DNA from: a virus
IMG/VR virus record: IMGVR_UViG_3300045988_161200
Strand: one strand, 5' to 3'
Length of the DNA stretch: 64,000 bases
Of this stretch, positions 56,544 to 59,184 are shown in pieces. A model generated the notes under the pieces. The model was not told where the DNA came from. It was given only the letters and a program-made list of their open reading frames with translations, and did not search any database. Position 1 is the first letter of the stretch; every line of letters starts with the position of its first letter. The position numbers and the translations under genes were made by a program.

Positions 56544-56584
56544 TTTATAACTTCCTTTCGTTTTTGTCAAGTTGAAAAATACGC

Positions 56585-56613
56585 TTGACTTTGTTTTTGT
56601 TTTGTGATATTAT
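56585..56613 (+). promoter_or_regulatory. sigma70-type promoter
   Basis: TTGACT, 17 nt, TATTAT. Confidence 0.5.
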
Positions 56614-56894
56614 TTAGGTTGGGAATTTTGTTTTCTTTTGTTTTCCCTTCCCTTATCTTGATTATATTATAACATATACATAGCAATATGTAAAGCAAGT
56701 CAATTTGTGCAATATAACGGAATTTGTGCAAAATGACAATGAAATATGAGTATTAAACAGTGTATAAATAGTTGAATATACTGTATATAGTGTATATTTG
56801 TTGTGATATTGCACAAATTAAGGGAATATAATCACAAATTTTGAAAAATAGCATATAATAATACACAAATATTATAATTGGGAGCTGTTTAGAT

Positions 56895-57077
56895 ATGAAG
56901 GAAAGTGTGAAAAAAGCATTAACAAATTATTATAATAAAAACAAGCAATTAAATATTACAATAAGTAATGAAATATATGAATTGTTTATCAACTACTGTA
57001 AACAAAATGATATTACAAAAAAAGAAGCTATTGAAACGATGATAACATATTGTATTGATAATAATATACTTAATTGA
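56895..57077 (+). CDS. ribbon-helix-helix (CopG/Arc-like) protein
   Basis: 60-aa ORF with a GGGAG RBS. A beta-strand-like LNITISNEIYELF is followed by two helices. It is embedded among TTGTGCAA-type repeats. Confidence 0.5.
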   Translation: MKESVKKALTNYYNKNKQLNITISNEIYELFINYCKQNDITKKEAIETMITYCIDNNILN

Positions 57078-57299
57078 TATACTTTAATGTAGTAAATTAT
57101 TTGTGGAAGCATCGGAGCTAATAGTCAAATATAATCAGAACGTGTAAATTGCATTTGTCAATAGGTAAATGTGCAAATAATTATATAATGTATTGTGCAT
57201 ATTGTATAATAACAGTCTGAGCCGGAAGCATAGCCGTGAGTGCTGCTATAATGCGTTATACGGCGTTTTGTTTATAGTGGTATAATTACCCTAACAGAT

Positions 57300-57660
57300 G
57301 CGTTAAAATGGCGTGTGCGTGATTTATTGTTGTTTGATATAATTTTATTGATAAATGATAATTTATTATTGATATTCAATAATTGACGTTTACAATTTAG
57401 TAATAATTATGTAATTTGTTAGATGTATTTATATTGTGATATTGCATAGTTTTAGAGCGTGAAATTTGGCTATTTTGCAAAATGTGGGAGTGTATGAGCT
57501 GAGATTGTTATATACTAACGTTGTATATTTTAATGTGATAAAGTTTAGTTGATTAAAGTATAGTAATATGGTTATGTGGTGTAATTTATAGTAATGTGGT
57601 ATAGTTTAATGCTGTTATGGATTAGCGATTAGGAAAATAAGCTTATGTATTATGATATAT
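57300..57660. other. C-depleted, G/T-rich non-coding segment
   Basis: My hand count gives roughly 75 G against 16 C on the plus strand. Confidence 0.6.
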
Positions 57661-58080
57661 TATGATCTATTTTTTAAAATATCTCTTGTATGCTTTGATT
57701 TTCTTTTGTTTTCTCTTGTTTTCTTTATTATGCTTTGATTTGGTTTCAATTATTTAACACTGTTAAATAAATTAACAACGTTAGCGAACCACTAAAAATG
57801 ACTAATAGTCATTATCAAAAGTGACCGTTGGTCATTATTTTTGATGCAACCAGTAACAAAATCTAAATAACAAATTCAAGAAATGTTAATAAAATTAGCT
57901 TCAAAATTTATCAAGAAATGTTAGTAGAAGTATTTCTAAAATATGTCTGTCTATGTTGCTTTTGGGACAAAAATAACATAGGATCGGCAGTACAGGGGGG
58001 TGTATTTACATTTAAAAGTTTGTTAATATTTGTTCAAAAGAGTATAGTAGTTCCACTCAACTCACACGTCTAAAAATTCA

Positions 58081-58640
58081 AATTGACACTCATCTATAAT
58101 TTCTTTTTTCTTACAATCCATTCTCATAATCCAAAAAAATACTCCAAAAATATCCCCAAAATCATTCGATGCTATTCTTCGGCAGACTCCCCTATTTATC
58201 TCACTTACAGACCAACAATAACAACCTCAAAACACATCTATCTTAAGAACTCAAAATCCATACCAATACTGTACTTTCAGACAAACCACAGAACACTTTA
58301 CGCTCACTTTACCATCTCAAACAGCAAATTACCCTACCCATACAAACATCTCTCAAATCTAATCACAGAGCCTAATACAAGTATCTCAAAAATAACATTT
58401 CAATACTATATATCTATTCAGAATCAACTTAAAGATATAATTCATTCACCTCAGACCATACCTTAAACACTTCAAAAACTAACACAAAATCTAAATCGCT
58501 CAAATGCCGATAAAATCTATGCTTTCTCCGAATACTATAAAAATCAATCAAAAGTATCAAAGATCAAATCTATATTTAATATATCAGAAGTATCTTAAAT
58601 CAAGTAAACATCATAAATCCATAGAAATAAATCGAAGATC
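58081..58640. other. G-depleted, A/C-rich non-coding segment
   Basis: My hand count gives about 30 G in 560 nt. CTCAAA-type short repeats occur throughout. Confidence 0.65.
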
Positions 58641-58773
58641 ATAAAAATTACAAATTGTTTTCTTGTGTTCTTATGAAAAATTTATAAACTTTTATAAGTT
58701 ACAGGTCATAGTATGCAGTATGCACCATATTTAAGATATTTAAGTAAAAGATAAAATTCAATCAAAAAAGCAC

Positions 58774-58801
58774 TTGACATTTTTATGAAACATGATATAA
58801 T
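58774..58801 (+). promoter_or_regulatory. strong promoter with extended -10
   Basis: TTGACA, 16 nt, TGATATAAT. Followed by the TTATAAGTAAGTAATAA leader motif. Confidence 0.65.
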
Positions 58802-58851
58802 AGTATTGTAGATATATTATAAGTAAGTAATAATATAATAATGTTCAAAAT

Positions 58852-58965
58852 CTACTTTTCTTTTTTGCTGACAAACTCGTCCATTTCACGTTTTATGGTC
58901 TTTGCTACGCAAAGCCTCATAAAACTATGTGAAATAGCCGACTATCGCCCAAAAAAGAAAAGTAG
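58852..58965 (+). ncRNA. long (~114 nt) nearly continuous hairpin, ncRNA candidate
   Basis: 16-bp perfect outer stem CTACTTTTCTTTTTTG / CAAAAAAGAAAAGTAG, inner pairings CATTTCAC-TTTTATG / CATAAAA-GTGAAAT, and an apical CTTTGC-TAC-GCAAAG. Confidence 0.45.
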
Positions 58966-59039
58966 CAAAAGAAAAAAGGGCGAATTATAACTTTTACTAA
59001 TAATAAAGAAGATGATAAAAACGAATAATAAAAATTGTC

Positions 59040-59107
59040 CAAATTTAAGATAATAGTATATTATAGTATATATAAAACATATAATTGGACAATTTTTATA
59101 CTTATAA
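59040..59107. repeat. 13-bp inverted repeat upstream of the 401-aa gene
   Basis: AAAAATTGTCCAA (59040-52) and TTGGACAATTTTT (59095-107). Confidence 0.6.
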
Positions 59108-59184
59108 GTTTCACGAAGTAATAAGTTAAGTATGGATTAACGGGTTTGTACAAATTTAACAGACAAAAGTGAGGTAGATATAAA

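Follow-up and report, generated by a model that had tools for sequence, protein, structure and literature searches.

The window analysed here, a 64,000-nt stretch of viral DNA (IMG/VR record IMGVR_UViG_3300045988_161200), contains an almost gene-free tract at positions 56544–59184. A minus-strand ORF (56391–56543/56570) borders the tract on the left, and a plus-strand gene for a 401-aa protein, beginning at 59185, borders it on the right. As an earlier sequence-only reading of this DNA had held, the sole credible ORF in the tract, and the only one that family searches support, encodes a 60-aa RHH protein (56895–57077). Two further ORFs, of 127 aa (58083–58466) and 51 aa (57918–58073), returned no family matches; the first is open in just 3 of 26 sequence variants and the second in a minority of clade A variants. 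We rejected protein coding by either, as they are unconserved and their frames are broken by 1-nt indels among close relatives; long ORFs are expected by chance in G-poor DNA without TAG and TGA stops. An alternative genetic code was discarded because elsewhere in the window long ORFs read normally under table 11.

Judged by its protein matches, the phage is a member of the YonO/DnaE (SPβ-like) group. Among cultured phages, Geobacillus virus E3 gives the best DnaE match, and its GP200 is matched by the 401-aa protein. In five relatives (L039, L009, L048, L051 and L054), a YonO homolog with 42–45% identity to SPβ YonO lies on the plus strand, roughly 3.9 kb past the 401-aa gene; in the window itself, the yonO gene would begin just past base 64000. 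The non-coding tract thus sits 5′ of the YonO operon and shares its orientation, as does the SPβ yonR–yonP gap. Comparison among relatives, which the sequence-only reading had called for, showed that the tract is kept in more than 40 related human-gut phage contigs (25 IMG/VR and 20 metagenome loci). Decayed genes or an assembly artefact, that is, junk from gene loss or a chimeric join, would sit well with the AT-rich, repeat-rich sequence and with the breaking of three contigs at an inverted repeat (59028–59099). However, the same architecture recurs in 45 independent contigs from two clades, whose neighbouring-gene proteins share only 66% identity, and is also kept in the cultured phages E3, SPβ, phi3T and Perkons. 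Ordinary protein genes in the tract's place, which had been named as the sign of decay or misassembly, were looked for and occur in no relative. On these comparative data, this explanation is effectively refuted and we consider it extremely improbable.

Ordinary early-gene control accounts for the left 750 nt (operator boxes, RHH gene and terminator) as well as for the promoter at 58774, with the following features:

56542–56570, minus strand: promoter-like site TTGACA-17-TAAAAT for the leftward early operon, an 11/12 match to consensus only
56585–56613 and 57055–57083, plus strand: promoter-like sites scoring 10–11/12 by consensus match
56666–56694, minus strand: second leftward promoter-like site, TTTACA-17-TATAAT with TG, scoring 10–11/12 by consensus match
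56705–56816, unstranded: three exact TTGTGCAA/TTGCACAA boxes (56705, 56724 and 56809), candidate RHH operators
56895–57077, plus strand: RHH (CopG/Arc-like) regulator gene, 60 aa, with Pfam and PHROG matches
57233–57273, plus strand: intrinsic terminator ending the RHH transcript, with a GCCGUG...UACGGC stem and a U-run after it, conserved in clade B
57257–57286, plus strand: promoter-like site with an extended −10 (TGgTATAAT), directly 5′ of the C-poor arm
58774–58801, plus strand: perfect promoter TTGACA-16-(TG)TATAAT, σ70-type (σA) consensus with extended −10, in both clades

Three of the eight exact box copies in the 64 kb fall within 112 nt here; degenerate copies occur at 57169, 57193 and 57473, and clade B has similar boxes. 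The RHH protein matches Pfam RepB-RCR_reg (2.9e-5) and PHROG Arc-like repressor families, and at the same place clade B carries a 124-aa ORF that is similar to it C-terminally. The promoter-like site at 57257–57286 is weakly conserved in clade B, and that at 58774–58801 is predicted by its consensus match to drive the rightward operon (401-aa gene to YonO). The claim of at least three consensus promoters held, with one perfect site and several 10–11/12 matches; the tract has 39 promoter-like sites, compared with 26.8 ± 4.9 in shuffles.

The middle of the tract consists of two compositionally skewed arms around a repeat-rich centre:

57301–57650, unstranded: left arm, C-poor and G+T-rich on the plus strand, 0–4 C per 50 nt
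57559 and 57587: direct repeat TATAGTAAT(A/G)TGGT
57648–57751, unstranded: tandem TATTATGATA repeats, then seven T-rich units (consensus TCTTTTGTTT) at an exact 10-nt period (array 57682–57751)
57689 and 57729: direct repeat TATGCTTTGATTT
57797–57836, unstranded: two palindromes, AATGACTAATAGTCATT and AGTGACCGTTGGTCATT
57876–57945, plus strand: two 35-nt direct repeats, each beginning TCAAGAAATGTTA
57951–57982, plus strand: hairpin P1 (CTATGTTGC...AACATAG)
57995–58070, plus strand: conserved core, with a G-run (57995–58000), TTTACAT (58005–58011), TAGTAG (58045–58050), then TTCCACTCAACTCACAC
58049–58560, plus strand: right arm, G-poor on the plus strand, 5% G, 27% C and 40% A

The short direct-repeat families listed by the sequence-only reading are present where it placed them, with the seven-unit array in addition, and palindromes were located at 57753–57767, 57797–57813, 57820–57836 and 59028–59099. 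The TATTATGATA/TCTTTTGTTT region is a candidate for bent DNA or a protein-binding array. T-rich repeats phased at 10 nt occur in both clades, differing in sequence and order; those of clade B are CTCTT repeats. Palindromes of the form ATGAn-N-nTCAT, similar to the pair in the window, are found in the SPβ block and E3, and the element GTTAGCGA(A)CC immediately upstream of the pair is common to E3.

The core follows the pattern GGGG-N3-TTTACAT-N33-TAGT. Its 33-nt spacer varies in sequence and is identical in length in five lineages: the window, clade B, SPβ, BUCT082 and E3. In Perkons, the distance from the first G to TAAGC is the same 53 nt, and TAAAAAT replaces TTTACAT. Across these phages the mapped or predicted inner edge of the genome-end block carries a G-run, T(T/A)TA(C/A)AT, a fixed spacer and TA(A)G(C/T), followed by TTCCAC or CACAC. 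A profile built from the gut cores only had its top match in 100 kb of SPβ at 64583–64522 (minus strand), within the mapped block, with an E-value of 0.13 that is weak alone; the same profile missed E3. A more distant YonO-like phage, Enterocloster CB473P1, was inspected and set aside: its junction is extremely AT-rich, but has neither core nor arms.

The two long segments of opposite base skew reported earlier proved to be the most extreme GC-skew blocks of the 64-kb window, in which skew has a mean of −0.14 and a standard deviation of 0.19. Skew is +0.57 to +0.73 on the left (200-nt windows, 57301–57700) and −0.54 to −0.73 on the right (200-nt windows, 58051–58600); for the right arm as delimited above (58049–58560) it is −0.6 to −0.79, with a weaker tail to about 58650. 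Unrelated viral loci totalling 1.05 Mb (120 control loci) yielded no such plus/minus pair. The C-poor left arm also occurs in clade B, E3, SPβ and phi3T: phi3T has 0 C in the 150 nt before its mapped left edge, while SPβ has 2 C in the last 75 nt before its left edge and 0 G in the first 50 nt past its right edge. The flip in GC skew coincides exactly with the core motif in SPβ, Perkons, the Geobacillus phage E3 and the two gut clades, and in four lineages the switch falls within the first 100 nt after TAGY. The window has a C-poor arm towards the predicted outer edge of its end block and a G-poor arm at the predicted inner edge, a trait that we found in this analysis and that lies outside any published definition.

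Arm sequence diverges at the pace of codon position 3 in the neighbouring gene or faster (identity of the G-poor arm versus position 3: 0.86 versus 0.98 in L003, 0.74 versus 0.81 in L005 and 0.61 versus 0.78 in L006). Despite this, the G-poor arm stays at 5–6% G in six lineages. Searching isolated phages by blastn gave no match for the tract and none for the E3 module; since the arms evolve too fast, homology had to be established through proteins, motif spacing and composition. Neither inverted symmetry between the arms nor complementarity to sequence elsewhere in the genome rose above chance. Helical phasing of A-tracts in the G-poor arm reaches significance in E3, L009, L017 and L005, but in neither SPβ nor the window, and is thus no general property of this arm. 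Arrays of the B. subtilis Chi site (AGCGG) were excluded on inspection of the SPβ and phi3T arms, where the relevant strand is almost free of C.

In the SPβ group, virion-DNA ends bound a 251-bp, sharp-edged coverage block in SPβ, phi3T and Goe11–14 (Kohm et al., bioRxiv 10.1101/2021.11.22.469490; block sequence and edges from supplement 11), and Perkons has a 264-bp short direct terminal repeat (DTR) defined by PhageTerm (PMC13245101). TAGY is the exact end of both the 251-bp block (SPβ, phi3T and Goe phages) and the 264-bp repeat, and for SPβ, phi3T and Perkons the mapped DNA boundary is also where the G-poor right arm begins. The record boundaries of BUCT082 and BUCT083, which are independent, coincide with the same two block edges. 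Of the three roles floated for the tract (replication origin, packaging or genome-end region, cluster of non-coding RNAs), it is the second that this homology and synteny with experimentally mapped ends support. The tract is probably the chromosome-end/packaging-initiation region of an SPβ-like human-gut phage, placed between divergent early promoters, with these predicted limits:

about 57780–58048, plus strand: predicted terminal-repeat/packaging-initiation block, homologous to the 251-bp block of SPβ and to the 264-bp DTR of Perkons
58048/58049: predicted right block boundary, after TAGT
about 57780–57810: predicted left block boundary, uncertain

Candidate left edges are 57780 (GTTAGCGAACC, common to E3), giving 269 bp, and 57809 (ATAGT), giving 239 bp; blocks of this type measure about 250–265 bp. 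None of the 45 related contigs ends at a predicted block edge.

The closest known counterpart is the 'genome opening point/pac-site' block that SPβ carries in its yonR–yonP gap (Fink & Zahler 1982; Kohm et al.). It occupies the same intergenic position and orientation upstream of the YonO operon, has the core G-run and TTTACAT-N33-TAGY at its inner edge, contains ATGAn..nTCAT palindromes, and is preceded by a C-poor arm and followed by a G-poor one. However, only the core can be aligned with the tract, and neither the SPβ start motif CTTCGATTCCC nor the start pattern of SPβ and Perkons, CTTCG/CTTACG (CTT(A)CG..ATTCCC), was found in the tract. The tract's unskewed centre is also longer (about 400 nt and not 250), with extra phased repeats; its left neighbour is the RHH gene where SPβ has yonR/yonS or yonT; a strong promoter and hairpin cassette follow its right arm; and its ends are predicted from sequence, whereas those of SPβ are mapped. 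Kohm et al. (bioRxiv 10.1101/2021.11.22.469490) interpret packaging in SPβ as headful (pac) and not of the DTR type, so that within the SPβ group itself the block may be either a pac site or a terminal repeat. The Psychrobacillus phage Perkons (PMC13245101; MT325768) is likewise a YonO phage. Its inner DTR boundary runs GGGGGTATA to CCCTAAGC over 53 nt in all, then TCCACAC and about 500 nt of G-poor DNA up to yonO, and the 5′-ended strand is G-poor at both virion ends. It differs in having TAAAAAT for TTTACAT and a weaker arm at the other end, and shares no DNA similarity beyond the core.

Short exact terminal repeats of the T7 type, as in Watson's concatemer model, also place a repeat of a few hundred base pairs between two specific cuts, with single-stranded 3′ tails of the repeat expected to anneal; however, there is no sequence or protein relationship, and strand-skewed subterminal arms are undescribed there. 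The pac region of SPP1 (pacL–pacC–pacR), the packaging signal of a Firmicute siphophage, combines repeats and bent A/T-tract DNA around a cleavage site, with no sequence similarity (see also PMC8270828). It lies inside the small-terminase gene region, whereas the tract is far from any terminase gene of the window. The lactococcal phage c2 has a non-coding ori/cos region between divergent early and late promoters, a long transcribed tract in which genome-end and replication signals are combined. It belongs to an unrelated phage family, and we know of no skew arms there.

If the tract were a replication origin, an initiator would bind the phased repeats and palindromes, the AT-rich centre would unwind, and the skewed arms would promote R-loops or the loading of a helicase; T4 oriF, ColE1 and the transcribed non-coding ori of c2 would be parallels. 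Several features are consistent with this: the tract lies where gene orientation diverges, the skew of the flanking genes turns from negative to positive as at an origin, 10-nt phased repeats and palindromes are present, the RHH protein matches a replication-regulator family, and a weak 'replication initiation protein' PHROG match occurs at 60689–61000. The SPβ origin has never been mapped (PMC8270828). Within the tract, however, skew runs from positive to negative, opposite to the origin-type polarity, and for forks leaving the centre the G-poor strand would fall on the lagging-strand template. The skew boundaries match the mapped DNA ends of relatives and no known origin, no DnaA-box or iteron family is common to both clades, and clade B has its repeats and palindromes in swapped order. 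We consider an origin rather unlikely as the explanation of the tract, though one could coexist with a packaging site.

Beyond the right arm lie an inverted repeat and, before it, a cassette holding the 114-nt hairpin of the sequence-only reading, which is real (z = −5.7 plus, −6.4 minus):

58852–58983, minus strand: long hairpin (58852–58965) and clamp/mirror module, the most conserved piece of the tract
58945–58983, the module: TCGCCC (58945–58950), A6GA4 (58951–58961), GTAGC, A4GA6 (58967–58977) and GGGCGA (58978–58983)
59028–59099, unstranded: inverted repeat AAAAATTGTCCAA/TTGGACAATTTTT, with a 32-nt AT-rich loop holding −10-like hexamers

The minus-strand fold is more stable by 9–11 kcal/mol, and a U-run is present on that strand only. 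The clamp/mirror module is missing from L024 and L025, and the cassette is an optional leader element.

These strand preferences bear on the idea that the tract functions mainly as a cluster of non-coding RNAs. On this view, the G-poor arm would be a C-rich, G-less, unstructured transcript of about 500 nt (a Rho-loading leader, insulator or decoy), the left arm its mirror-image leftward counterpart, and the hairpin a minus-strand antisense sRNA, consistent with its stability and U-run on that strand. Hints of transcription of the G-poor arm come from P1 at its 5′ edge, where changes in four lineages yield G·U pairs on the plus strand only, and from plus-strand intrinsic terminators 3′ of the arm in clade B (L017, 5450–5472) and E3 (about 455–490). 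Promoter-like sites in clade B point outward from the centre. C-rich, G-poor untranslated RNA is the composition of Rho-utilisation (rut) sites, and the plus strand of 58049–58560, with a C:G ratio of about 5 across 500 untranslated nt and no conserved ORF among the variants compared, has the at least 80 nt of C-rich, G-poor, unstructured RNA expected of such a site, which is relevant only if transcribed. Against this, an Rfam 15 search of 56544–59184 gave nothing at gathering score and noise only at E ≤ 10, in clade B too; no promoter 5′ of P1 is conserved in both clades; the arm evolves at or above the synonymous rate; G-less RNA cannot hold much structure; and an RNA model would not lead one to expect composition boundaries that match DNA ends to the nucleotide. 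For the core, a structured RNA was rejected, as RNAalifold returned the P1 hairpin alone, without compensatory pairs. An RNA cluster as the main function therefore seems improbable, while single parts of the tract, namely the G-poor arm and the hairpin, may have such a role.

Under the genome-end reading, the terminase complex would recognise the block of about 240–270 bp (about 57780–58048) through its palindromes, repeats and core and cut it at both edges, and packaging would proceed to the right, across the G-poor arm and on in the direction of the 401-aa gene and YonO. Cutting at two edges with rightward packaging would make the block a short terminal repeat at both virion ends. Inward of each repeat would lie an arm whose 5′-ended strand is G-poor and whose 3′-ended strand is G-rich and C-poor. 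The arms may mark a zone in which the 3′-ended strand is single-stranded during end processing, through 5′–3′ resection or an end-replication gap, the latter letting the terminal repeats anneal into circles or concatemers. Their composition could be caused by the single-stranded state, as a mutational footprint, or be selected for it, favouring an absence of G–C hairpins, recombinase-friendly GT-rich tails and few priming sites. AT skew of the arms is inconsistent between lineages, with A exceeding T on the supposedly exposed strand of SPβ, and the G-poor arm has normal G+C content with C enriched to 27–33%; a pure deamination footprint does not predict this normal G+C content and C enrichment.

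We suggest, tentatively, that the arms of SPβ-like chromosomes constitute a subterminal element that is both conserved and functional and, independently, that one strand of the hairpin forms a MALAT1/ENE-like triple helix. The subterminal element would be 300–600 bp of fast-evolving DNA beside each terminal repeat, with a 5′-ended strand almost free of G and hence a 3′-ended strand nearly free of C, serving as a structure-free, recombinase-friendly or priming-free single-strand zone in which the terminal repeats can anneal. If so, the arms would be a phage counterpart of telomere strand asymmetry, and their abutting mapped ends to the nucleotide points to an unstudied end-processing step. The genome-end reading would also place, by homology, the chromosome ends of a widespread uncultured human-gut phage group of about 130 kb and tie that group to the SPβ/YonO lineage. 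The G-run and TTTACAT-N33-TAGY offer the SPβ field a concrete cut-site signature across Bacillus, Geobacillus, Psychrobacillus and gut phages, which can help to decide between headful packaging and short exact terminal repeats. As a simple compositional marker, the C-less and G-less arms could find genome termini in metagenomic contigs without reads. The sequence-only reading had singled out the tract as the window's strongest candidate for something not yet described. This does not apply to the region, whose SPβ homolog is described, but holds for the core motif, the skew arms abutting mapped ends and the hairpin architecture, none of which turned up in the literature searched; no description of the C-less and G-less arms seems to exist so far.

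Other identities for the hairpin were considered. A mobile or host-derived element was rejected, the base motif occurring once per genome and in this phage group only; matches in bacterial genomes and other viral contigs were put down to chance. The start codon of a would-be small toxin ORF (49 aa) is not conserved, and a protelomerase target was dismissed at only about 76% self-complementarity. A mirror-repeat search for further triple-helix candidates was abandoned because the pattern is far too common in A-rich DNA. Purine mirror repeats like that of the hairpin are common in phage DNA; the third tract accompanied them in 0 of 120.

The layout of mirrored U- and A-tracts is compatible, speculatively, with a MALAT1-like triple helix. 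Read on the minus strand, the sequence is UCGCCC-U6CU4-GCUAC-U4CU6-GGGCGA ... CA6GA4GUAG, so that, as in MALAT1/ENE elements, two facing U-rich strands and a closing stem are accompanied by an A-tract in Hoogsteen-compatible register. The order is also shared (U6CU4, loop, U4CU6, linker hairpin, A6GA4, with a flanking clamp stem), and the first U-tract, running parallel to the A-tract, would give 10 U·A-U and one C+·G-C triples. Unlike in MALAT1, the upper element is a 5-nt loop with no stem, and the A-tract is followed by GUAG and the U-run and is thus not 3′-terminal; only two sequence types of the element exist, and Rfam ENE models did not match the hairpin. If formed, in minus-strand RNA or single-stranded DNA, this U·A-U/C+·G-C triple helix would be the first in a phage. 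In the clade B hairpin, all three tracts lengthen jointly, from 4 to 5, with a clamp rebuilt as TTATCGC/GCGATAA.

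Between the last leftward ORF (56391-56543/56570, minus strand) and the 401-aa gene at 59185-60390 (plus strand), only short frames occur, and the ORF list and family searches together confirm that the tract at 56544-59184 is almost gene-free where gene orientation diverges. A single ORF has family support, the 60-aa RHH frame at 56895-57077, which matches Pfam RepB-RCR_reg (2.9e-5) as well as PHROG Arc-like and other repressor families; the sequence-only reading had named it the sole credible ORF of the tract, and no other frame has such support. The longest frame (58083-58466, 127 aa, TTG start) lies inside a G-poor stretch, so TAG and TGA stops cannot occur across it; it has no family match and is open in just 3 of 26 sequence variants. 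A 51-aa frame at 57918-58073 is shut in most of the close relatives (clade A), shifted by 1-nt indels. The other elements described from the sequence were likewise recovered: promoter-like sites outnumber those of shuffled sequence (39, compared with 26.8 ± 4.9) and include one perfect site at 58774-58801, the named direct repeats and several palindromes are present, two segments of opposite skew are the strongest skew blocks of the whole 64-kb window, and a 114-nt hairpin occupies 58852-58965. A 10-nt periodic array lies at 57682-57751.

Genes for a DnaE-type polymerase, a DnaB-like helicase and a ligase lie in the minus-strand block to the left of the tract. No DNA match to the tract was found among 50,697 isolated phage genomes. 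With the 401-aa protein as query, we recovered 25 IMG/VR loci and 20 metagenome loci, on contigs of up to 146 kb; several of these 45 are labelled human gut, and they split into two clades. Clade A has a 401-aa protein 87-100% identical to that of the window and an alignable tract (80-94% nucleotide identity). In clade B, the protein is 66% identical and the tract is not alignable to the window by blastn, yet the anatomy is like that of the window: an RHH-type gene, ~2.5 kb in which no ORF is conserved, one block poor in C and the next poor in G, a consensus promoter, a long hairpin and then the gene, in the same order. Decay or misassembly is refuted, since 45 contigs and also four cultured phages retain the tract. 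The cultured phages closest by protein are Geobacillus virus E3 and large siphophages of Bacillus, and relatives of the window carry a single-subunit RNA polymerase of the YonO type (42-45% identical to that of SPβ), co-oriented with the 401-aa gene and ~3.9 kb past it, a position that, carried over, would fall just outside the window end. This places the window phage among the SPβ-like phages.

Two Pistol self-cleaving ribozymes, both above the Rfam gathering threshold, are sited in the minus-strand early gene block (55138-55210 and 52657-52731, both minus strand; 66.2 and 45.9 bits). Sub-threshold hammerhead matches occur at 56324-56379 (minus strand; type I, 25.5 bits, E = 0.0034) and at the homologous place in the clade B locus L017 (803-843, minus strand; type III, 22.5 bits); a ~70-nt piece at 56344-56413 is the sole blastn alignment between the clades left of the tract. 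Rfam also identified a fifth tRNA, absent from the ARAGORN output, at 38321-38386 (minus strand; 39.8 bits), inside the tRNA cluster at 37.7-38.8 kb.

Homology to mapped DNA ends of SPβ and Perkons indicates that the tract is probably the genome-end and packaging-initiation region of an SPβ-like gut phage, lying within early-gene control elements; of the roles offered from the sequence, this is the one supported. The homology centres on a core comprising a G-run, TTTACAT, a spacer and TAGY; the window, clade B, SPβ, BUCT082 and E3 share a spacer length of 33 nt. At the junction of the E3 record, a C-poor stretch is followed by the core (...CTATAGGGGCGGTATTTTACAT-N33-TAGCAC..TTCCACACCC), then by ~360 nt at 1-5 G per 50 nt and an intrinsic terminator. 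The SPβ core (GGGGGTATATTTACAT-N33-TAGCAC..TTCCATTTCCACACCC) occurs in the yonP-yonR gap (64583, minus strand) and is followed by a G-poor arm directed at yonP-yonO. A profile of gut phages only had its top match in 100 kb of SPβ at this site (E = 0.13, weak by itself), within the 950-bp gap and in the correct orientation.

The SPβ 'genome opening point' was placed in this same gap by restriction mapping (Fink & Zahler 1982) and read mapping (Kohm et al., bioRxiv 10.1101/2021.11.22.469490), the latter study also describing a sharp-edged ~251-bp block of elevated coverage that is common to SPβ, phi3T and Goe11-14. In the orientation used here, the block sequence (Kohm et al., supplement 11) starts CTTCGATTCCC... 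and ends ...GGGGGTATATTTACATC...CCCATAGC, so that the SPβ block stops exactly after TAGC of the conserved motif (SPβ 64531); the next base opens the G-poor arm. For BUCT082 and BUCT083, the start or end of the database record falls on the same two block edges. Psychrobacillus phage Perkons, whose YonO is 43% identical, has a PhageTerm-defined short direct terminal repeat of 264 bp (PMC13245101). The inner boundary of this repeat reads GGGGGTATAAAAATATCC...CCCTAAGC, with 53 nt from the first G to the boundary, matching the SPβ distance, and is followed by TCATCTATCCACAC and then ~500 nt at 1-5 G per 50 nt, up to yonO. The simplest reading of the '250-bp block' in the SPβ group is thus that of a short terminal repeat. 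In the window, the homologous position reads ...TATAGT followed by AGTTCCACTC, with the junction at 58048/58049.

As a kind of element, a genome-end region is already known, and in that respect the suggestion of something not yet described did not hold. Three of its features do appear undescribed: the cut-site core with its fixed spacing, common to gut phages and to those of Bacillus, Geobacillus and Psychrobacillus; the arms, C-less or G-less, starting at mapped ends; and the way the leader hairpin is built. Each of them can be tested directly in SPβ, phi3T or Perkons.

In many phages that carry a YonO-like gene, whether cultured or assembled (CB473P1/P2/P3 and CB457P1/P2 of Enterocloster, Thomasclavelia TR-TP1, MT835481), the record begins just 0.2-1.4 kb upstream of it, which suggests a wider rule of a genome end beside the phage RNA polymerase operon. 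The CB473P1 junction is extremely AT-rich, but has neither core nor skew arms. Small annotated CDSs in the C-free arm or the terminal block of phi3T (KY030782 55583-55696) and BUCT082 (171-284) are probably spurious calls. The 1.7-kb unannotated gap from yonK to yonN in SPβ (NC_001884 59153-60833) is GC-balanced and has no skew.

The two skewed blocks of the tract, a C-poor left arm and a G-poor right arm, have GC skews of +0.57 to +0.73 and -0.54 to -0.73, whereas the 64-kb window averages -0.14 (sd 0.19); no +/- pair as strong occurs in 1.05 Mb of unrelated viral loci. Across SPβ, E3, the window and clade B, skew in 100-nt bins is ~+0.03 to +0.45 ahead of the TAGY site and -0.65 to -0.79 in the first bin after it. 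The G-poor arm reaches 200-700 nt past TAGY, while the C-poor arm extends to the outer edge of the block on the opposite side, with 2 C within the last 75 nt in SPβ and 0 C over 150 nt in phi3T. The distal part of the SPβ C-poor arm is found again at 66230-66450, upstream of yonT, and appears to have been split off through the yonR-yonS insertion. Upstream of the yonT toxin gene, the distal G-poor block (NC_001884 66226-66275, plus strand) opens TTTACA-N17-TTCCAC-N5-CACACTCA, which reads as a shortened echo of the genome-end core. In the Perkons virion, the strand that is 5′-ended at the terminus is G-poor inward of each terminal repeat, strongly at the yonO end and moderately at the other. 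The tract might also act as a replication origin, and SPβ itself has no mapped origin; however, the inner skew polarity is reversed relative to an origin-type switch and the composition boundaries coincide with DNA ends, and we consider an origin unlikely.

For a genome-end region, two explanations of arm composition remain. The arms may be a mutational footprint of 3′-ended strands that are repeatedly single-stranded, a likeness to vertebrate mitochondrial DNA. Skew polarity, its decay with distance from the DNA end and the fast evolution of the arms fit this explanation, but C is raised to 27-33% while G+C content is unchanged, and AT skew differs in sense between lineages. The arms show no sequence conservation, yet G in the G-poor arm holds at 5-6% in six lineages. 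Arm identity to clade A relatives is at or below that of third codon positions in the adjacent gene (for the G-poor arm, 0.86 vs 0.98 in L003, 0.91 vs 0.97 in L001, 0.74 vs 0.81 in L005 and 0.61 vs 0.78 in L006, all clade A loci), figures to which recombination could contribute. Alternatively, composition may be under selection: structure-free or GT-rich 3′ tails could favour annealing or recombinase loading, a zone poor in priming could hold the repeat single-stranded or, at the RNA level, C-rich G-less leaders could serve Rho loading. Significant 10-11-bp phasing of A-tracts occurs in four lineages, which include neither the window nor SPβ.

Within the putative block of the window, hairpin P1 (57951-57982) carries changes in four lineages, all giving G.U pairs on the plus strand and none of another kind. 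Together with plus-strand terminators past the G-poor arm in clade B (L017 5450-5472) and E3, these changes suggest that the arm may also be transcribed on the plus strand. Upstream of P1, no promoter is common to both clades, and the tract has no Rfam family match. A cluster of non-coding RNAs as its main function, also proposed from the sequence, seems improbable. In one clade B locus (L012, ~4616-4660), the P1 loop is the exact reverse complement of its relatives' loop (TTTTCTCCAAAAA vs TTTTTGGAGAA), which looks like a flip by template switching at the hairpin.

The probable genome-end region is flanked by the following candidate control elements.
56570..56542, minus strand: leftward promoter-like site, consensus match
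56694..56666, minus strand: leftward promoter-like site, consensus match
58774-58801, plus strand: perfect extended-consensus promoter, conserved in both clades
58852-59265: segment with the hairpin and an inverted repeat at 59028-59099

Three exact TTGTGCAA boxes lie inside 112 nt (8 in the whole window), and the RHH gene has a terminator that is kept in clade B; together with the leftward promoter-like sites, these elements give the left side of the tract the look of an early switch under autoregulation.

Of all elements of the tract, the leader hairpin is conserved best, with 97-100% identity in clade A even where third codon positions are at 78%. It occurs once per genome and is restricted to this SPβ-like gut phage group; in clade B the basal stem is kept, and the interior is unrelated yet still paired. 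The minus-strand fold is better than the plus by 9-11 kcal/mol in all four hairpin variants, and a U-run follows the hairpin on the minus strand only. Downstream of the stem, the plus strand reads TCGCCC-A6GA4-GTAGC-A4GA6-GGGCGA. In clade B the clamp is TTATCGC/GCGATAA, and the 5′ arm, 3′ arm and extra tract change jointly from 4 to 5. Read on the minus strand, the module is U6CU4-loop-U4CU6-hairpin-A6GA4, with the first U-tract in parallel register with the A-tract. MALAT1/ENE triple helices consist of U.A-U triples with one C+.G-C, and the module matches their strand order and triple composition. A MALAT1/ENE-like triple helix would be an interesting lead rather than a finding: the sequence types number just two, phage DNA often carries purine mirror repeats and minus-strand transcription is putative. 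The third tract accompanies 0 of 120 purine mirror repeats of phage DNA, and a literature search returned no phage precedent for or against such a helix.

The segment at 58852-59265 is missing in two relatives, L024 and L025, where the promoter abuts the gene directly; it is therefore an optional leader cassette. Metagenomic contigs of three other related loci (L002, L039 and L045) start at 59015-59093, within or bordering this inverted repeat (59028-59099), whose arms of 13-20 nt are too short for a repetition-caused assembly break. L024/L025, compared at 5975-6082 with window 58852-59265, carry a different gene, of 278 aa; only the first 92 residues of its product are common with the 401-aa protein, and the breakpoint falls exactly at the hairpin foot.
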